From an archaeon (GTDB lineage Archaea; Iainarchaeota; Iainarchaeia; Iainarchaeales; CSSED10-239): a stretch of DNA of 14,435 nt. The notes beneath the pieces are model-generated. The model saw only the letters and a list, made by a program, of their open reading frames with translations. It searched no databases and was not told the origin of the DNA. Positions 1-13,779 of this stretch are shown here, in pieces (the stretch's first letter is position 1; the number at the start of each line of letters is the position of its first letter). The stretch spans positions 1-14,435 of the forward strand of contig DAOOUC010000014.1 of assembly GCA_035390665.1 (NCBI GenBank), in the 5' to 3' direction. A program made the translations under genes and the position numbers.

Positions 1-487
1 GCCAAACACTATAATTAACTATATATTCTTTATTTTCTTTAATAAATATAGATCTTCCTTGTGCTTTTTTTATAAATTGTTTTATAGTTATTTCTTTTAG
101 TCCTGTTTCTTTTACGATTTCTGTTATTGTTTTTTTATCAAGAGCAGTAGTTAATATTTTTATTCCAGAGTAAGGTAATATTTCAATTAGATTTTTATTT
201 ACAAGTAGTTTTCTTAATTTCAAAGCAAAAGGATATTCTGAGACAGAAAGTTTTTGTTTATCTTTAGTTATTAATTTCTCTCTTATAAGTGTACCAATCA
301 TTTCACTTATATGTGTTTTATTCATTTTAATATTTTCAAGTATTTTACTTAGTCTGTTATTTCCTTGACAGATTTCATAAAATACAAGTAATTGAGTTCT
401 CGTAAACATAAGTATATTAATATCCGAACTATATATAAATGATTCGGTTTTCAGTATATTTTTAGTAATATATTCTAATTCACTCAT
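1..487 (-). CDS. Winged-helix (MarR/ArsR-like) DNA-binding protein; C-terminus runs off the window
   Basis: Absent from the ORF track because it is open at the window edge. My reverse-complement translation from the ATG (complement of 485-487) reads MSELEYITKNILKTESFIYSSDINILMFTRTQLLVFYEICQGNNRLSKILENIKMNKTHISEMIGTLIREKLITKDK... with no stop through position 1 (about 162 codons). There are two HTH-like segments: LSKILENIKMNKTHISEMIGTLIREKLI and TITEIVKETGLKEITIKQFIKKAQGRSIF. Confidence 0.6.
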   Translation of the reverse strand, partial: MSELEYITKNILKTESFIYSSDINILMFTRTQLLVFYEICQGNNRLSKILENIKMNKTHISEMIGTLIREKLITKDKQKLSVSEYPFALKLRKLLVNKNLIEILPYSGIKILTTALDKKTITEIVKETGLKEITIKQFIKKAQGRSIFIKENKEYIVNYSVW

Positions 488-524
488 ACCATAAATATAT
501 AGTGTTTTATAAGGCCAGTCATTC

Positions 525-582
525 TCGGGGGGGTAGGTGTCCAGTGGAACCCCTTTAGAAAAGGTGTTGCGATCCCAAAACG
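525..582 (-). repeat. Family-A intergenic element, short GC-richer variant (copy A4), oriented toward the minus-strand wHTH gene
   Basis: The reverse complement of 525-549 is ttccactggacacctacccccccga, 24/25 identical to 5093-5117. The reverse complement of 550-582 (cgttttgggatcgcaacaccttttctaaagggg) loosely matches the 5' module ttttgtaaaatcgcaaaatctt of copies A1/A2. Confidence 0.6.
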
Positions 583-586
583 AACT

Positions 587-616
587 CTGCTGGTTGCGCT
601 CGGCTCGCGCGCAATA
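587..616 (+). repeat. Family-C GC-rich module (copy C-e)
   Basis: ctgctggttgcgctcggctcgcgcgcaata aligns with gagccggtttcgctcagctcgcgcgcaata at 3165-3194. ttgcgc (594-599) and gcgcaa (609-614) can pair as a 6-bp stem. Confidence 0.55.
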
Positions 617-2802: not shown

Positions 2803-2886
2803 GCTGAGCCGGTTTCGGTCACGCCCAGAAAATTCATTTTCTGGCGTCCCAGAAGCTAAGCTTCTATGAGCTCGCGCCCAATGGCG
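2801..2886 (+). repeat. Composite GC-rich element: a family-C module split by two small hairpins
   Basis: The left part is gagctgagccggtttcggtcacgc (2801-2824). Hairpin 1 is ccagaaaat-tc-attttctgg (2825-2844) and hairpin 2 is agaagct-a-agcttct (2851-2865). The right part is gagctcgcgcccaatgg (2868-2884). Left and right parts together match the modules at 3081-3114 and 3164-3206. Confidence 0.55.
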
Positions 2887-3293
2887 AAAGAATAAGAGAA
2901 GAAGAAACATCCAAGTTAATAAGTAAGATAATAGCAAGAGAAAGACTTTCCTATTTACAAAAGAAGATAAGAGAATTAAACACCCAATACTTCAATCTCC
3001 CTTTAGGAGAAATTAAGTTTAAGAATCAGAAGACTCGGGTGTGGGCAGTTGTTCACAGAAGAGAAACATAAACCTCTCCAGGAGCTGGTTTCGGTCAGCT
3101 CGCCCCCAGTGGTTGCACCAGAATCTGTTCTTGAATACGTTTGCATTCACGAGTTAGCCCACCAGAGCCGGTTTCGCTCAGCTCGCGCGCAATAGTCTCT
3201 CTAGACTTCTGGTCCATCATCCGTTCCATCGACCCCAGTTACAAAGACAAGCACAAGTGGTTGAAGAAGAACGGTAAAGACCTCGTCATTTAA
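2886..3293 (+). pseudogene. Decayed second copy of the 3' half of the DUF45/YgjP-like gene
   Basis: It is collinear with 1060-1427 in three blocks (about 2886-3080, 3115-3163, 3207-3293) and ends at the equivalent TAA (3291-3293). It is 5'-truncated. A 2-nt insertion near 3037-3043 leads to a premature TAA at 3069-3071. Two internal segments are replaced by GC-rich modules, one of which removes the LKEYNHSEA part of the metal site. Confidence 0.85.
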
Positions 3294-3989: not shown

Positions 3990-4079
3990 AAGATTTTGTA
4001 AAATCGCAAAATCTTGGACATTTTTAGATAGTTTCACAAATAATTTCGCAGTGGACAACTACCCCCCCGAAAACACCCC
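3990..4079 (+). repeat. Family-A intergenic element, full-length copy A1
   Basis: It has a perfect inverted repeat aagattttg-N8-caaaatctt (3990-4015) and an AT-rich middle (tttttagatagttt). The core is tcgcagtggacaactacccccccga (4046-4070), followed by aaaacacccc. It aligns end to end with 5040-5126. Confidence 0.7.
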
Positions 4080-4141
4080 TTGTTTAAGACACAGATATAT
4101 AATATAAATGTTAACTTTAATAATATTTAGAGAGGGAACTA

Positions 4142-5029
4142 ATGAAAAATAAAGAGAAAGTAATAATTCTAAATTATTGTGCATATAGTGCAATTGGCCG
4201 GATTTGTTTAAGATTTCCTAAAGAAATCAAAGGATTATTGAAGATTGTAAAGTATTCTAAAGATAAACAAGAGATTATTGCTAAAGTAAATATCTTAAAT
4301 AAGCAGTTAGTTCCATTAATTTTAGTTTTATTGAATAATCTAAAAGAAATCAATTGTTCTAAGTTAAATTATTTATTTCTGGAAAACGATTATTTAGAAA
4401 AATATTTTGAAAAAATAATGTTAAATAAAAAACTCAATAAAAAAGACAAATTAATTAATGAGTATATTTCTCAATTATTTAAAATCCCTAAAGCCACTAA
4501 CATTAACCAACTACGGTTAAAAAAATTAACGACTTTTATTAATAACTGTAATTTATTAGATAAACCAAAATGGAGGAAATTAAAATTTATATTTTTAAAA
4601 TCCATAAAAGGAGTATCTTGCGGTTATGGTAATTTTAATTATGTAATTATTGAATCTAACATCTTTCCAGAACAGCTAATTATACATGAAGTAATACATA
4701 ATTATAATCAAAAACAAAAATTTAGAACCAAAAATACAATGGAATTTGAAGAAATATTTACCAATGTTATTTCTCAAGCAATTTATTGTAAATATAAGAG
4801 AAAGCCAGTTGTTTTTGATAAGTACTATTATTCTACAAAAAAAGAACAGCAATTGGAAGAGGAATTACGGATGTGTTATTTTGAATGGATTAAACAATCA
4901 AATCCTAATTTTCTAGATTATTTAGAAGAAAGTGGAAAGATATTCATTGGTAAAGATAGAATCACTTGGACCTTTAATGATAATTTAAAGTTTAAGAAAC
5001 TAGTTAAAGAATCTATAAAGGTAAAATAA
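4142..5029 (+). CDS. Hypothetical protein with a single HExxH motif (possible metallopeptidase)
   Basis: Intact 295-aa ORF with an ATG start preceded by the purine-rich agagaggga. The motif is LIIHEVIHNY. No other family signature was recognised. Confidence 0.55.
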   Translation: MKNKEKVIILNYCAYSAIGRICLRFPKEIKGLLKIVKYSKDKQEIIAKVNILNKQLVPLILVLLNNLKEINCSKLNYLFLENDYLEKYFEKIMLNKKLNKKDKLINEYISQLFKIPKATNINQLRLKKLTTFINNCNLLDKPKWRKLKFIFLKSIKGVSCGYGNFNYVIIESNIFPEQLIIHEVIHNYNQKQKFRTKNTMEFEEIFTNVISQAIYCKYKRKPVVFDKYYYSTKKEQQLEEELRMCYFEWIKQSNPNFLDYLEESGKIFIGKDRITWTFNDNLKFKKLVKESIKVK

Positions 5030-5039
5030 ACTAATTCTA

Positions 5040-5126
5040 TTTTTGTAAAATCGCAAAATCTTAAACATTTTTTTATAGTTTAACAAATGGTTTTCCACTG
5101 GACAGCTACCCCCCCGAAAACAACCC
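5040..5126 (+). repeat. Family-A intergenic element, full-length copy A2
   Basis: ttttgtaaaatcgcaaaatctt...ttttttatagtttaacaaatgg...ttccactggacagctacccccccga (core 5093-5117), followed by aaacaaccc. It is a direct repeat of A1, about 1.05 kb downstream. Confidence 0.7.
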
Positions 5127-5147
5127 GGCTTCTACTACTATATATTA

Positions 5148-6113
5148 TTGGTGGAAGGTCTGAACGAAAATAATAGTTTAATTGTTCCAGATAATATAAA
5201 TCACAAGATTCATGCAATTAGAGGAGTTCAGGTAATGCTTGATAGCGATCTTGCAGAACTGTATGGAGTTAGCACAGGTAGACTGAATGAAGCAGTTAAA
5301 AGAAATATAGATAGATTTCCCGAGGATTTCATGTTTCAATTAACGCAAAAAGAATGCGAAATCTTAAAGTCGCAATTTGCGATATCAAGTTTGGGTAATG
5401 TTAATAATTTCCCTGTAAATACTAGTAATAACGCTAATCGTTCGATATCGCAATTTGCGATATCAAAGAATGACAGAGGTGGAAGACAAAAATTACCATT
5501 CGTTTTTACTGAACAAGGCGTTGCTATGCTTTCTGGAGTTCTTAAGAGCGAAAGAGCAATAAAAGTTAATATCTTTATTATGAGAGCATTTGTAGCTATG
5601 AGACAATTTATACAAGAAAATGCAGGGCTATTTCAAAGAGTTGATAGTCTTGAAATAAAACAAATTAAAACAGATAAAAATATTAAAATGATCTTTAGTG
5701 CTATGGCAGATAAAAATATTTTCAAAAAACAAAAAATTCTTTTTGATAATCAAATATTTGATGCTTACAAGTTTGTTAATGATATACTAAAAAAGGCAAA
5801 GAAATCAATAATTCTTATTGATAATTACATAGATGAATCAGTGCTAATACTTTTTTCAGAAATAAAGAATGTAAAGATTATTATATATACTGAAAATATA
5901 ACAGATAAATTAAAACTTGACCTTGAGAAATATAATCAACAATATTCAAATATAGAAATAAGAAAATTCAAGAAATGTCACGATAGATTCTTGATAATTG
6001 ACAATAAAGAAATCTATCATTTTGGAGCATCAATCAAAGACCTTGGAAAGAAGTGGTTTGCTTTCTCTAAGATGGATAAAGAGTCATTAAAATTATTACA
6101 AAAATTGGAATAA
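5148..6113 (+). CDS. ORF6N (KilA-N-like) DNA-binding domain fused to a PLD-like (HxK/R..D) C-terminal domain
   Basis: The N-terminal IRGVQVMLDSDLAELYGV...RLNEAVKRNIDRFPEDFMFQLT...FTEQGVAMLSGVLKSERAI is the ORF6N signature. The C-terminal CHDRFLIIDNKEIYHFGASIKDLGKKWFAFSKM resembles a phospholipase-D/nuclease HKD-type motif with R in place of K. The start is uncertain: TTG 5148, GTG 5151, and no upstream ATG. Confidence 0.75.
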   Translation: MVEGLNENNSLIVPDNINHKIHAIRGVQVMLDSDLAELYGVSTGRLNEAVKRNIDRFPEDFMFQLTQKECEILKSQFAISSLGNVNNFPVNTSNNANRSISQFAISKNDRGGRQKLPFVFTEQGVAMLSGVLKSERAIKVNIFIMRAFVAMRQFIQENAGLFQRVDSLEIKQIKTDKNIKMIFSAMADKNIFKKQKILFDNQIFDAYKFVNDILKKAKKSIILIDNYIDESVLILFSEIKNVKIIIYTENITDKLKLDLEKYNQQYSNIEIRKFKKCHDRFLIIDNKEIYHFGASIKDLGKKWFAFSKMDKESLKLLQKLE

Positions 6114-7742: not shown

Positions 7743-7813
7743 TTTGGGGGTACAACCTTATTTTAATTGTATACACTAGTGGGTACAATTTATAAACATT
7801 TGTATACACTATA
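7743..7813 (+). repeat. Family-B element (copy B2), organised as two tandem 33-nt units
   Basis: 7743-7788 matches 1430-1475. The units at 7748-7780 and 7781-7813 both read GGGTACAA-N11-TTGTATACACTA-N2 at identical offsets. Confidence 0.65.
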
Positions 7814-7818
7814 TATTT

Positions 7819-8772
7819 ATGGCTATAATAAAAAGAATTATCGGAAATAAGGAATATTATTATTTAGAAGAACAGTTTAGAATAATAGATAAATTAAGAA
7901 AATTCAGAAAATATTTAGGCTCTAAAAAACCATCTAAACAAGAACAAATAGATATTGAAAACCAATTTCTAGACACTATAATTGCAAGATTAACATCTTC
8001 TTCAAATATTCAAGTAAAGTATATCTCTAAAAAGCAATTAATTCAGATATTATTATTTAATCAAAAATATTTTAATAAATACAATAAATTAACTCCAACT
8101 ATTAAAAATAAGCTAAATATAGACAATATTGTATTATTTACATTAACTACTTTAACAACAGAAGACATAGACGTATCTTTAGAAGATGTAATTAATGCTC
8201 AAAAGAAAGATAAAAACTTAAATCAGAGAGAACTAATTTGTAAAAACATGTTAAAAGGCATAGATCTAATCAAAAAAGGAAAAACTAAAATAGACATTAA
8301 TTTTATTAAAAACTTACATAAAACAATAATGGCTGATTTTGAAACAAAGACACCTGGACTATTTAGAACAAGAGAAGTTCATATCTATAAAAAGCACACA
8401 AAAGACATTTTAAGTGCAGAAATAAAGTTTCAGCCACCAGCTTACGGGTTAGTTGTGGATAAACTTAACAAATTAATAGAGTGGTATAATTCTTCAGATT
8501 TAAATAACTTTGAAAAAGCAATACTTTTACATTTTGAAATATATAAGATTCATCCATTCCTTGATGGAAACAAGAGAGTATGTAGATTATTGTTCAATAA
8601 AGTATTACTTGACAATAACTTTCCATTAGTAAACATTTCAGACAACAGAACTAAATACTTTGATTCATTACTTTCTTCAGTAGAAGAAAACAACCCTGCA
8701 CACATGGCTGACTTTATGGTGAATGCTTACTTAAAACAAGTAAAGACATTTATAGGTAAAGACGAAAGTTAG
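7819..8772 (+). CDS. Fic-domain protein (putative AMPylase/adenylyltransferase)
   Basis: Fic motif HPFLDGNKRVCRLL (consensus HPFx[D/E]GN[G/K]R). An upstream segment TTLTTEDIDVSLEDV aligns with the class-II inhibitory-helix region (S/T)xxxE(G/N), here TxxxED. Confidence 0.85.
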   Translation: MAIIKRIIGNKEYYYLEEQFRIIDKLRKFRKYLGSKKPSKQEQIDIENQFLDTIIARLTSSSNIQVKYISKKQLIQILLFNQKYFNKYNKLTPTIKNKLNIDNIVLFTLTTLTTEDIDVSLEDVINAQKKDKNLNQRELICKNMLKGIDLIKKGKTKIDINFIKNLHKTIMADFETKTPGLFRTREVHIYKKHTKDILSAEIKFQPPAYGLVVDKLNKLIEWYNSSDLNNFEKAILLHFEIYKIHPFLDGNKRVCRLLFNKVLLDNNFPLVNISDNRTKYFDSLLSSVEENNPAHMADFMVNAYLKQVKTFIGKDES

Positions 8773-9583: not shown

Positions 9584-9603
9584 TTCCACTGGACAGCAAC
9601 CCT
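9584..9603 (+). repeat. Family-A element, truncated copy A3 (core only)
   Basis: In ttccactggacagcaaccc the first 14 nt are identical to the A2 core, and the C7 run is reduced to ccc. It lies 36 nt upstream of ATG 9640. Confidence 0.5.
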
Positions 9604-9639: not shown

Positions 9640-10398
9640 ATGATTAAATTAATTAGTGATAGAAATATCTTAGATAAATTTGTTATAGATTTTACAACTA
9701 TTTTAGAAAAATACTCAAAATATGCAATAGTTTCTGGTTTCTTAGCAATTTCTAGTGGAAGAGTAAGAGGAACAGAAGATATTGATCTAATTGTTGAAGA
9801 AATGACTAAAGATACTTTTGAAAAATTCTTTAAAGATATCTATAAGCACAAATTTGAATGTGTACAAGGAGATGACCCAGAATTAATTTGGAATTTATAT
9901 TTAAAATCAAAAGACACAATAAGATTTGTGCGAAAGGGCACAGAAATGCCAGACATGGAATTTAAATTTCCAAAAACAGAAGCAGATAGAGTAGCATTAC
10001 TTACTAGAAAGAAATTACCATTAACTGGCCTTTCGGTTTACTTTGGAAGTATAGAAAGTACAATTGCATTTAAAGAACATCTTTTAAAGTCTCCAAAAGA
10101 TATAGATGATGCAAAGCATTTAAGATTAATCTATTCTAAAGAAATAAATGAAAAAGAAATTATTCGAATTAAAAAACTTATAACAAGAGACATTTTAGGT
10201 AAATCAGGTAAACTTAAATCCCCAGAATTAAGTTACTATTACAGAAGAGATAAAACACATGATGAATTTATAGAAAGATGGGCAGAAAACATAAAGAAAA
10301 CTCCACGAAAAATCTGGAAAAAAGAATTAAATCAATTTATTGATGCTCAATTCCAAAAATCAAAAGAATTCTATAAACGATTGAATAAGAAAAAATAA
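9640..10398 (+). CDS. Nucleotidyltransferase-fold (minimal NTase / MNT-like) protein
   Basis: ISSGRVRGTEDIDLIVEE fits the G[GS]-x(9-13)-DhD NTase pattern. Intact 252-aa ORF with an ATG start and a TATA-like cttataaac centred 25 nt upstream. Confidence 0.5.
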   Translation: MIKLISDRNILDKFVIDFTTILEKYSKYAIVSGFLAISSGRVRGTEDIDLIVEEMTKDTFEKFFKDIYKHKFECVQGDDPELIWNLYLKSKDTIRFVRKGTEMPDMEFKFPKTEADRVALLTRKKLPLTGLSVYFGSIESTIAFKEHLLKSPKDIDDAKHLRLIYSKEINEKEIIRIKKLITRDILGKSGKLKSPELSYYYRRDKTHDEFIERWAENIKKTPRKIWKKELNQFIDAQFQKSKEFYKRLNKKK

Positions 10399-12309: not shown

Positions 12310-13779
12310 ATGGGTACTTTAGATTTATATAAAACATTAAATGAAAAACAAAAAGCTTATGTTAATCTTAAAATGACAGATAGTCAATTACATAATGGAG
12401 AATATATGTTAACAGTTTTCCATTTTAGACCAGGAAAAGGATTAAATACTTTACAAGCAGCTGCTGAAATTGCAGCAGAATCATCAACAGGAACTAATTT
12501 TGCAGTAACTACAGAAACTCCATTTTCAAGACAAATGAATGCACTTGTTTACAAAATGGATACTAAAAATGAATTAGTATGGATTGCATACCCTTGGAGA
12601 TTGTTTGATAGAAGAGGAAATATTCAAAATATTTTAACTTATGTTGTTGGAAATGTTCTTGGTATGAAAGAGGTTTCTGCATTAAAACTTTTAGATGTTT
12701 GGTTTCCACCAAGTATGTTAGAACAATTTGATGGCCCAAGCTACACAATTGATGATATGAGAAAATACTTAGGAGTTTATGATAGACCAATCTTAGGGAC
12801 AATTATTAAACCCAAAATGGGACTTACATCAGCAGAATATGCAGAAGTATGCTATGATTTTTGGGTAGGCGGAGGAGATTTTGTTAAGAACGATGAACCT
12901 CAAGCAGATCAAGATTTCTGTCCTTATGATAAAATGATAAAACATGTTAAAGAAGCAATGGATAAAGCAGTAAAAATTACAGGACATAAAAAAGTACATT
13001 CATTTAATGTTTCAGCAGCAGATTACGACACCATGATAAAAAGATGTGAGATGATTAGAAATGCAGGATTTGAAAAAGGATCTTATGCTTTCTTGATTGA
13101 TGGAATAACTGCAGGATGGATGGCAGTTCAAACTTTAAGAAGGAAATATCCAGATGTTTTTATTCACTATCATAGAGCATCACATGGTGCATACACTAGA
13201 CCAGAAAATGCATTTGGTTTCTCTGTTTTAGTTCTTTCTAAGTTTGCAAGGCTTGCAGGAGCTTCAGGAATTCACACAGGAACTGCTGGAGTTGGAAAGA
13301 TGGCTGGAAGTCCAGAAGAAGATATTGTTGCTGCTAGAAATATTTTAGAATATTCTGCAAAAGGGCATTATTTTGAACAATCTTGGTCAACTATACCTGA
13401 GAACGATATAGATATTAAAAAACTTGTAAAAAAAGACAAAAACAAAAAAAGAATATTAGAGGATGACTCTTGGAGAGGAATAAAAAAATGTGCTCCAATA
13501 ATTTCTGGTGGATTAAATCCAACACTATTAAAGCCATTTATTGATGTTATGGGTGGAGTTGATTTCATAACAACAATGGGTGCAGGTTGTCATGCTCATC
13601 CAGATGGAACCCAAGCTGGAGCAAAGGCTTTAGTTCAAGCTTGTGAAGCATACAAAAAGAAAATAGACATTCACAAATATGCAAAAGACCCAAAGCATAA
13701 AGAACTGAAAAGAGCAATTGAATTCTTTGAAAGAAAAAAATGTAAAGGTCAAGAAAAGATTACAAAAAAGAAAAAATAA
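12310..13779 (+). CDS. rbcL: Ribulose-1,5-bisphosphate carboxylase large subunit, form II/III type
   Basis: Motifs: GTIIKPKMGL (catalytic Lys region), GGDFVKNDEPQADQDFCP (carbamylated Lys; form-II-like GGDFxKNDEPQ), HYHRASHGA, GIHTGTAG and SGGLNP. There is an insertion of about 31 aa (STIPENDIDIKKLVKKDKNKKRILEDDSWRG) where form II/III enzymes are known to carry one. Confidence 0.92.
   Translation: MGTLDLYKTLNEKQKAYVNLKMTDSQLHNGEYMLTVFHFRPGKGLNTLQAAAEIAAESSTGTNFAVTTETPFSRQMNALVYKMDTKNELVWIAYPWRLFDRRGNIQNILTYVVGNVLGMKEVSALKLLDVWFPPSMLEQFDGPSYTIDDMRKYLGVYDRPILGTIIKPKMGLTSAEYAEVCYDFWVGGGDFVKNDEPQADQDFCPYDKMIKHVKEAMDKAVKITGHKKVHSFNVSAADYDTMIKRCEMIRNAGFEKGSYAFLIDGITAGWMAVQTLRRKYPDVFIHYHRASHGAYTRPENAFGFSVLVLSKFARLAGASGIHTGTAGVGKMAGSPEEDIVAARNILEYSAKGHYFEQSWSTIPENDIDIKKLVKKDKNKKRILEDDSWRGIKKCAPIISGGLNPTLLKPFIDVMGGVDFITTMGAGCHAHPDGTQAGAKALVQACEAYKKKIDIHKYAKDPKHKELKRAIEFFERKKCKGQEKITKKKK

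Follow-up and report, generated by a model that had tools for sequence, protein, structure and literature searches.

In the LexA regulon of Escherichia coli, an SOS box lies upstream of recA, ssb, polB/dinA, dinD and the uvr genes. Activator- and factor-specific promoters of archaea include those with upstream activating sites for Ptr2 or TFB-RF1, as well as the alternative TBP/TFB classes of haloarchaea. Putative mobile promoters are homologous promoter segments that stand before unrelated genes in one genome. To our knowledge, almost nothing is known of how archaeal DNA repair is regulated outside the Sulfolobales, and nothing of the transcriptional regulons of uncultured DPANN archaea. In the Sulfolobales, the damage-responsive element 5'-ANTTTC-3' is bound by Orc1-2, with TFB3 as a secondary activator (PMC6061795, PMC6101594), and in Sulfolobus damage induces, by way of Orc1-2, the atypical family-B polymerase PolB2 (Dpo2) together with recombination genes (PMC6061795). 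The element considered here lies in a 14,435-nucleotide (nt) stretch of archaeal DNA, contig DAOOUC010000014.1, referred to throughout as the window, which carries four copies, A1 to A4, the last of them truncated. With a probability of about 0.72, the conserved core of these copies represents, in the window, a cis-regulatory promoter module of ~55 bp that recurs across a whole lineage and marks a small set of genes in DPANN archaea.

The module has a sharply bounded anatomy. Positions are numbered from the T of TGGACA as +1. Across 51 unique copies the conserved block spans -3 to +52 and reads CAC-TGGACA-S-CTACCCCCCC-GAAAAYRA-CCCCY-N-TTT-N-AA...ATATAT. Conservation sets in abruptly at -3 with CAC, stands near 2 bits from +1 to +22 (TGGACA-S-CTACCCCCCC-GAAAA) and goes on over +23 to +37 (YRA-CCCC(Y)-N-TTT-N-AA). 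Information content is 1.5-2 bits at -3 to +34 and near zero upstream of -7, where the loci are unrelated, save that 15 of the 51 have a weaker TATA-like signal whose start is at -18/-16. An AT box at +43 to +52, downstream of the core, is found in ~47 of the 51 copies. Three parts can be distinguished. (i) The 5' box, (C)CACTGGACA, can be duplicated and survives in degenerate copies. (ii) A 7-nt C/pyrimidine tract is followed by GAAAAYRA. (iii) A second C-run, a T-run/A-run and the ATATAT box complete the module. The copies were gathered by exact match to 19-22 nt; the flanks at -3 to -1 and +20 to +52 lie outside the search pattern and provide independent evidence of conservation. The initial annotation of the window had described a three-part element of ~90 bp. 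All of its pieces (A1 and A2, their 5' module, the inverted repeat, the cores and the truncated copy) are confirmed, but the unit that recurs across genomes is a different one, extending from -3 to the ATATAT box ~45 nt downstream of TGGACA.

Non-exact copies define which features of the core are constrained. An nhmmer search of 348 kb yielded eleven such matches, seven full-length and four truncated. In the full-length matches the 7-nt tract reads CCCTCCC, CCCTCTC or CCCCCTC, or is intact beside a T-to-C change; its length is constant and C7 is not. More distant relatives carry C6, CCCTACC or C5. The run of seven C once thought invariant and selected is invariant only within the window; related loci keep the length of the tract and its pyrimidines rather than seven C. 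The four truncated matches retain the 5' part alone, CACTGGACANCNACCC, as A4 does. Because the 5' box occurs in tandem at two loci (L084 and L091, below), is retained in truncated copies and is almost never solitary, it appears to act as a separate unit.

Exact copies of the core gather in one lineage. Species-representative genomes were scanned for exact TGGACANCTACCCCCCCGA, and metagenomes and viral contigs were scanned as well. The representatives gave 26 loci: 17 fall in six AT-rich metagenome-assembled genomes (MAGs) labelled 'uncultured archaeon', with up to six copies per MAG, and the other nine are scattered single matches in high-GC bacteria that look like chance. Metagenomes, with contigs from anaerobic-digester and activated-sludge samples, added 43 further core-bearing loci, and the total, window included, is 63 exact cores, 51 of them unique. 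An origin in a virus or plasmid was rejected, since viral contigs gave one match, due to chance and within GC-rich coding sequence. The names that depositors gave to close homologues of neighbouring proteins assign the lineage to Ca. Diapherotrites/Iainarchaeum. On six contigs of 208-382 kb, 1.65 Mb in all, exact copies number 13 (~0.8 per 100 kb), and the gene set marked by the module in this clade is estimated at roughly 8-10 per Mb. Against that background A1, A2 and A3, clustered within 5 kb at ~25 times the density of the large contigs, make the window an unusually dense cluster. Many metagenome contigs start or stop within ~100 nt of a module (L088-L090, L003, L017, L034, L035, L052, L061); one of them, L090, consists of the HExxH gene of the window alone, cut at A1 and A2.

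Placement relative to genes is strongly constrained. A co-oriented, ATG-started ORF (open reading frame) begins 31-145 nt past the core in 45/51 unique copies, a count that includes three spurious 2-nt calls corrected to 66-84 nt; at least three of the six remaining copies are cut by contig ends. For 41 copies the locus includes an ORF upstream, tandem in 21 cases and divergent in 20. The element points with the genes in 21/21 tandem contexts, and some divergent copies lie merely 41-52 nt from the start of the other gene. Start codons form three groups, the earliest at +51: those at +51 to +53 lack a Shine-Dalgarno (SD) sequence, those at +63 to +66 are preceded by GGTGAT at +53 to +58, and a third group lies at +86 to +111. 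A regulon-defining promoter or operator element is expected in several copies per genome, all of them intergenic and upstream of genes, with one orientation and a limited range of distances to the start codon, and the copies found here fit this picture. The scans, with their many further copies and complete orientation bias, bear out the initial view of a selected, oriented, promoter-associated element aimed at gene starts.

Comparison of orthologous loci indicates that the module is under purifying selection. At radA, at the gene for a polymerase-like protein and at dinD, the module is 77-88% identical between orthologues, the 60 nt upstream of it 43-51% and the coding DNA 74-82%. Synteny is conserved: radA adjoins PPDK, and the polymerase-like gene adjoins Alba. 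In more distant relatives, diverged versions of the module precede radA or the polymerase-like gene at seven loci (L073, L076, L081, L082, L084, L091 and L093). L073 carries CTCGGCAAACTACCCCCCTTAGAAAAGAACCC...CATATATTATT. The polymerase-like gene of L076 follows CTCGGCCAGCTACCCCCCTTGAAAAG, and radA of L081 follows CTCGGCCAGCTACCCTACCAAAAAAC; the same 5' variant, CTCGGCCAGCTACCC, thus stands upstream of two different genes. In L082, which has 52% GC, the module takes the form CACCGGCAAACCACCCTCCCGA-TG-TTTAAAAG...AATATATT, with TTTAAAAG at +22..29 and AATATATT at +47..54. L084 and L091 have two tandem CCACTGGACA-type boxes, and L093 has yet another diverged version. The module at radA and at the polymerase-like gene, both syntenic, has diverged lineage by lineage, which argues for vertical inheritance, and retention at orthologous core-gene promoters across genera points to selection on regulation and not to spreading by transposition. 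In L084 (1383-1440) and L091 (~1085-1150), upstream of radA in a sister lineage, the 5' box is seen twice, ~29 nt apart (CCACTGGACAGCA...CCACTGGACAAGAACCCCC); such tandem boxes are consistent with cooperative binding of a putative factor.

The genes behind the module are in good part related to DNA. RadA (PF08423), DinD (NCBIfam equivalog NF008573; 358.7 bits against a cutoff of 242) and a 485-amino-acid (aa) protein with a family-B polymerase fold are found at six loci each, ORF6N proteins at about seven (among them L001, L019, L048, L054 and L068), YhcG/DUF1016 nucleases at four to five and a conserved 49-aa basic peptide at eight (L010, L021, L031, L036, L045, L049, L065 and L071). Bro-N, KilA-N, SLFN AlbA_2, VapB-like ribbon-helix-helix and small winged helix-turn-helix (wHTH) proteins are further families, and a degenerate half-copy precedes RPA. 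The DNA-related set thus comprises RadA, the PolB-fold protein, DinD, RPA (by its half site), YhcG and Bro-N/KilA-N/ORF6N; other members are functionally uncharacterized. An earlier generalization, that all downstream genes are accessory, holds for this window and fails elsewhere, at radA and at the degenerate copy before RPA. The 485-aa protein has no Pfam or NCBIfam match. Its AlphaFold model has a mean pLDDT (predicted local distance difference test score) of 86, and Foldseek aligns it with the family-B DNA polymerases Pol epsilon, Sso PolB1 and Thermococcus Pol (E ~5e-7, probability 1.0). It may be a PolB2-like translesion enzyme. The family of ~485 aa is restricted to the lineage (L011, L030, L039, L051, L069, L073-L078, L093; proteins P0001-P0035), has Cys242 and Cys245 among its invariant residues and is encoded next to Alba in conserved synteny. 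The 49-aa peptide, MFR..N+F+-NVCVMYKSVDDLI.KN+.LIGRT..., always lies directly past the module, with GGTGAT as SD sequence, and has no family match.

This gene set parallels the SOS regulon of E. coli (recA, ssb, polB, dinD), and by that analogy the regulon is plausibly a response to DNA damage or foreign DNA. As with the SOS box, one short cis element serves a recombinase, a family-B polymerase-type protein, dinD, a single-stranded DNA-binding protein (degenerately) and prophage-type antirepressor-like genes, with about ten sites per genome that are kept across related species. The differences are also clear: the module is archaeal, ~40-55 bp long, asymmetric and C-rich, whereas the SOS box is a palindrome of 16-20 bp; no LexA was identified here, the damage response is deduced from gene content, and uvrC of the window has no module. 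With the Sulfolobales element the module shares its domain of life, a position near the promoter and within ~55 bp of the start codon, and association with damage genes that include an atypical family-B polymerase (Dpo2 in the Sulfolobales) and recombination genes. Read on the opposite strand, the GAAAAT of the module fits ANTTTC, a trivial match in AT-rich DNA. The module is otherwise far longer and of another sequence, DPANN archaea are not Thermoproteota, and the ups/ced/tfb3 set was not seen.

A mechanism in three parts can be proposed. (i) The 5' box, CACTGGACA, would be the binding site of a putative dedicated regulator, at the place where archaeal activators bind. (ii) The C-tract and GAAAAYRA would occupy the positions of the TFB-recognition element (BRE) and TATA box, ~26 nt upstream of the ATATAT box, as a non-canonical core promoter. 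(iii) Transcription would start within the ATATAT box, at about +48. Such a start fits all the data and would explain why conservation stops there and why no start codon precedes +51; the +51 genes would be of the leaderless type, the +63 genes would have SD-containing leaders of 15-20 nt, and the others longer leaders. In the GC-rich locus L082, a good TATA box, TTTAAAAG, stands exactly at the position equivalent to GAAAAYRA. Genes of these genomes that have no element also commonly show an ATATAT-like box immediately 5' of the SD sequence, which fits the ATATAT box as a marker of the start region. A conserved box directly upstream of a weak or atypical BRE/TATA, in fixed geometry to the presumed start, recalls the activator- and factor-specific promoters of archaea; the stretch from -50 to +3 relative to that start is nearly invariant and in this is closer to phage RNA polymerase or extracytoplasmic-function sigma promoter classes than to known archaeal sites, and the factor is putative. 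Small wHTH genes that themselves bear the module (L006, L029, L038, L062) are only candidates for the regulator, and a role of the core as operator for the adjacent wHTH protein, suggested in the initial annotation, is likewise hypothetical. A more elaborate version, which must be regarded as tentative, sees a Diapherotrites/Iainarchaeum SOS-like regulon (radA, rpa, PolB2-like, dinD, nucleases, antirepressor-like genes) with a dedicated promoter class, C-tract/GAAAAYRA taking the place of BRE/TATA, read by an alternative TFB/TBP or an Orc1/Cdc6-type regulator on CACTGGACA; the tandem GC-rich modules described below would then be co-regulated small-RNA units or decoys.

Several observations weigh against the promoter-module reading. 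Collection by exact match partly explains the invariance within the 19-22-nt search stretch and makes the estimate of regulon size provisional. Operators usually show dyad symmetry, and the core shows none; radA of two related lineages (L079, L092) has no module in front of it. Three TATA-like signals compete. A canonical archaeal core promoter has its TATA box centred ~26 nt before the start, with a purine-rich BRE next to it on the 5' side. TATA-like octamers peak at -18/-16 (15/51) and at +41 to +46 (~47/51); the upstream TTTATAAA, at -18/-16 in those 15 copies, would place the start near +10, and the downstream octamer cannot serve genes with an ATG at +51 to +66. As a TATA box GAAAAYRA is poor, and C7-GAAAAYRA is not canonical. 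GAAAAAC with ATATATT resembles a canonical BRE and TATA, yet suits only genes with an ATG past +86. As a TATA box for all genes ATATATT was rejected: the ORF6N, DinD and 49-aa genes start 0-15 nt past it and have conserved N-termini, and a start ~23 nt past it would suit only the long-distance genes. The regulator is putative, and the DNA-damage label is an analogy drawn from gene content. The 49-aa and 55-aa peptides and the HExxH protein have no known function, many downstream genes are typical mobile or defence genes, and the promoter reading does not account for the GC-rich modules beside a third of the copies.

The alternative that fares best, though it is unlikely, places a shared 5' leader at the core: an upstream TATA box would direct a start at about +10 (T9/A10), and the unstructured C-rich beginning of the mRNA, ACCCCCCCGAAAAUGACCCCCUUUU..., would bind a protein or small RNA that controls translation or stability. 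In its initial form, with an AT-rich TATA-like middle and a start near the beginning of the core, this reading is possible, but the AT-rich middle is not conserved in the family and the near-universal AT box lies downstream. The canonical TTTATAAA-type octamer in 15/51 copies has the right spacing for a T9/A10 start, copies with GC-rich modules carry TTTTTTCAAAAGG at the same place, the geometry suits all ATG distances, and the core resembles, by eye, the 16S 3' tail around CACCU. However, 70% of copies lack a good upstream TATA box, some being GC-rich there (...GCGCAACCGGTTGAC), and many of the boxes present lie in divergent intergenic regions where they may serve the other gene. Folding gave no structure (z = -0.18, alifold energy ~0). 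A shared leader also leaves two facts unexplained: conservation ends at the ATATAT box, and CACTGGACA, upstream of the start, is the best-kept part of degenerate copies. The further idea of a structured leader or antisense RNA was rejected on z values of -0.18 and +0.88 and alifold energies of -0.1 and -2.5, and Rfam gave no match at E<=1 in the window and, in 10 loci elsewhere, a tRNA alone, none relevant.

Less probable still is a mobile promoter or cassette junction, in which the element travels with accessory genes or is itself a recombination site, A1 and A2 marking the insertion of an HExxH cassette. Over 86 nt, the 5' part outside the family-wide module included, A1 and A2 share 86% identity and so reflect a duplication; ORF6N, Bro-N, YhcG, DinD and VapB-like genes are typical of mobile or defence regions, GC-rich modules gather exactly at the 5' edge of the core, and assemblies break at the element. 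Like putative mobile promoters, the module is a segment of >50 bp before non-homologous, partly mobile-type genes, with local duplication; in contrast to them, it is kept at orthologous core-gene promoters across genera. Against mobility speak its syntenic position 5' of radA and of the polymerase-like gene, where it has diverged lineage by lineage in a way that indicates vertical descent, the absence of terminal inverted repeats, of target-site duplications and of a GTTRRRY-type core site, the absence of an integrase or transposase domain from the window ORFs scanned, and a viral-contig match that is single and due to chance. The cassette, recombination-boundary and miniature inverted-repeat transposable element (MITE) readings of the initial annotation are accordingly given up, the genes in conserved synteny being single-copy core genes. 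An exact-protein look-up of the HExxH gene found the same gene context in every contig carrying it, all of the same strain context, and retrieved no strain that lacks the gene.

An origin recognition box (ORB)-like site for an Orc1/Cdc6-family protein, either replication-related or a damage-regulator site like that of Sulfolobus Orc1-2 (in which case it becomes a sub-variant of the promoter module), is very improbable. The 5' box reads TTCCACTGGA, a mini-ORB dyad, in 17/51 copies, A2, A3 and A4 among them, and adjoins a G:C homopolymer string; a Sulfolobus Orc1 paralogue does drive a damage response that includes Dpo2/PolB2 (PMC6061795). Published ORBs read GTTCCAGTGGAAAC-AAA----GGGGG (PMC1868953) and, for ORB1 of P. 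furiosus, CCCCCC-N10-TTCCACTGGAA (PMC1904270). In the module the polarity of the string is inverted (dyad then C-string, not G-string), the spacer is 4 nt rather than 7-10, and two thirds of copies read GCAC or TTAC instead of TCCAC, so that the dyad is not conserved in most of them. Copies are dispersed, single and gene-oriented, a promoter-type rather than origin-type distribution, with no cluster around an AT-rich unwinding region by orc1/cdc6 and no orc1/cdc6 gene in the window. An ORB identity was rejected, the architecture not matching the published TTCCAGTGGAAAC dyad with G-string (PMC1868953, PMC1904270).

The remaining identities were rejected: an integron cassette or attC site (no integrase domain in the scanned window ORFs, no attC features, no inverted repeat, a position 5' of genes including syntenic radA), a MITE or transposon end (no terminal inverted repeat or direct repeat in or around A1/A2, and always gene-directed) and a tRNA or split tRNA on the G-rich strand (the window gave no tRNA or tmRNA with ARAGORN, and by eye no D-arm can be folded from the GGGGGGGTAG... 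strand). Searches of the available literature for the module sequence or for a DPANN promoter motif gave no match, in agreement with the initial impression that no described element resembles this one.

The window itself is AT-rich (22-39% GC in 500-nt windows), and its genes for a form-III-like RuBisCO, UvrC, Fic, ORF6N, YgjP, NUDIX and HD proteins fit a DPANN-type archaeon. Table 1 lists the copies and their neighbours. The alignment of A1 (3994-4079) with A2 (5041-5126) is gap-free and 86% identical, and their 25-nt cores (4046-4070 and 5093-5117) agree at 21/25 positions, with 4 differences; the core of A3, the reverse complement of 525-549, is the same as that of A2 at 24/25. The core, GGACARCTACCCCCCCGAAAACA, had 0 matches in 200 shuffles. 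The copies are aimed at ORF starts at 4142 (A1), 5148/5151 (A2), 487 on the minus strand (A3) and 9640 (A4).

Table 1. Copies of the module in the window and the features next to them.
Feature	Position	Strand	Description
wHTH ORF, 5' part of 312-aa ORF	3..487	-	downstream gene of A3; N-terminal winged helix; leaves the window at its left end
A3 conserved module	492..546	-	T of TGGACA = 543; ATATATTTAT box = 501-492; 5' of wHTH ORF, ATG 487-485
GC-rich module directly 5' of A3	550..616	-	TTGCGCGCGAGCCGAGCGCAACC...GTTTTGGGATCGCAACACCTTTTCTAAAGGGGTT
A1 local 5' extension	3990..4045	+	9-bp inverted repeat, second TTGGACA box (4013-4019), AT-rich stretch; outside the family-wide module
A1 conserved module (-3..+52)	4049..4103	+	CAG-TGGACAACTACCCCCCC-GAAAACA-CCCC-TTGTTTAAGACACAG-ATATATAAT; 5' of HExxH ORF; from in-register alignment of 51 unique copies
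HExxH ORF, 295 aa	4142..5029	+	downstream gene of A1; ATG 71 nt past core
A2 local 5' extension	5041..5095	+	same 22-nt module as A1, plus AT-rich stretch
A2 conserved module	5096..5149	+	CAC-TGGACAGCTACCCCCCC-GAAAACA-ACCCGGC-TTCTACTACT-ATATATTATT; then SD-like GGTGGA 5150-5155
ORF6N-domain gene	5148..6113	+	downstream gene of A2; Pfam PF10543, E=1.3e-35
A4 truncated copy	9585..9602	+	retains 5' box alone, TCCACTGGACAGCAACCC; 38 nt before ATG 9640; nhmmer E=2.5
252-aa ORF, no family match	9640..10398	+	downstream of A4

Two adjacent genes of the module-bearing set have A1 and A2 as their promoter regions, and A4 is a decayed copy. The 22-nt 5' module TTTTGTAAAATCGCAAAATCTT is identical in A1 and A2 and has no third occurrence in the window (0.01 matches in shuffles). 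In A1 it contributes to the inverted repeat aagattttg-N8-caaaatctt at 3990-4015, and the second TTGGACA lies 38 nt upstream. Since this extra 5' part is common to both, one copy was duplicated from the other. The 5' module and AT-rich middle are local features, found elsewhere in just two ORF6N loci: ~55 nt of the A1 extension recur in L048 and, inverted, in L068. The HExxH ORF has no Pfam or NCBIfam match. The wHTH ORF has weak HTH_27/HTH_45 matches and a full-length version in L027. In the ORF6N gene, the ATG of its orthologues (L001, L048) is replaced by CTG at 5160, so the gene probably starts at TTG 5148 or GTG 5151. These in-frame codons overlap the SD-like GGTGGA.

GC-rich modules, here called G-modules, lie directly 5' of the core in ~17/51 loci, each ~85-145 nt long, single or in tandem arrays of up to about four. 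They were seen in the window at 550-616 (minus strand), 3084-3111 and 3167-3194 and at L001, L003, L004, L007, L025, L033, L034, L038, L039, L046, L048, L053, L061 and L066-L068. A G-module starts with GGCTCCAGTAGAGCYATAC...GGCTGCGCGTCAACC, which resembles the 5' box of the core, continues with variable hairpins and ends in CTTTTTTCAAAAGG; the whole can be read as TCCAGTAGAGCYATAC...GGCTGCGCGTCAACC, variable hairpins and CTTTTTTCAAAAGG. Among the sampled loci the GGCTGCGCGTCAACC signature has no occurrence outside G-modules. They could be small transcription or RNA units, decoy sites or insertion remnants. They are not CRISPR-like repeats, as the 'spacers' recur between loci and are hairpins themselves, nor strongly structured RNA, z being moderate (-2.0 to -2.7) in 2/5 folds.

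Other features of the window stand apart from the module. Positions 1059-1427 and 2886-3293 are 88-92% identical in blocks and reveal a partial second copy of a YgjP-like metallopeptidase gene, with length differences of 17-20 nt, coding sequence replaced by G-module-like GC-rich sequence and a stop directly past HELAH; this copy is probably a pseudogene. A 45-nt repeat, TTGGGGGTACAACYTTATTTTAATTGTRTACACTAGTGGGYACAA, 93% identical at 1431-1475 and 7744-7788, lies once past the YgjP stop and once between the divergent uvrC and Fic genes, and among the fetched loci is present in this genome only. It was rejected as a diverged copy of the module, to whose reverse it bears only a vague likeness (CCACTAGTG...GTACCCCC). 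At 7789-7821, the Fic ATG (7819) is preceded at 22 nt by TTTATAAA, the spacing seen with leaderless mRNAs of archaea, and this palindromic box could also serve the divergent uvrC. A RuBisCO large subunit of form-III type (PF02788/PF00016) is encoded at 12310-13779 and adjoins the NUDIX and HD genes, a neighbourhood typical of the nucleotide-salvage pathway of DPANN and candidate phyla radiation organisms.

The module is probably the signature of an undescribed regulon: an unusually long, asymmetric promoter module that marks a probable DNA-repair or foreign-DNA gene set in DPANN archaea. Its 55 bp can be found by sequence alone, which makes the predicted regulon checkable in existing metatranscriptomes, and they bear on assembly, since contigs break at the repeat. 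The module offers a functional hint for the 485-aa PolB-fold protein, for the 49-aa and 55-aa peptides and for the HExxH and wHTH proteins of the window, and it is a defined DNA bait for a search for the regulator.

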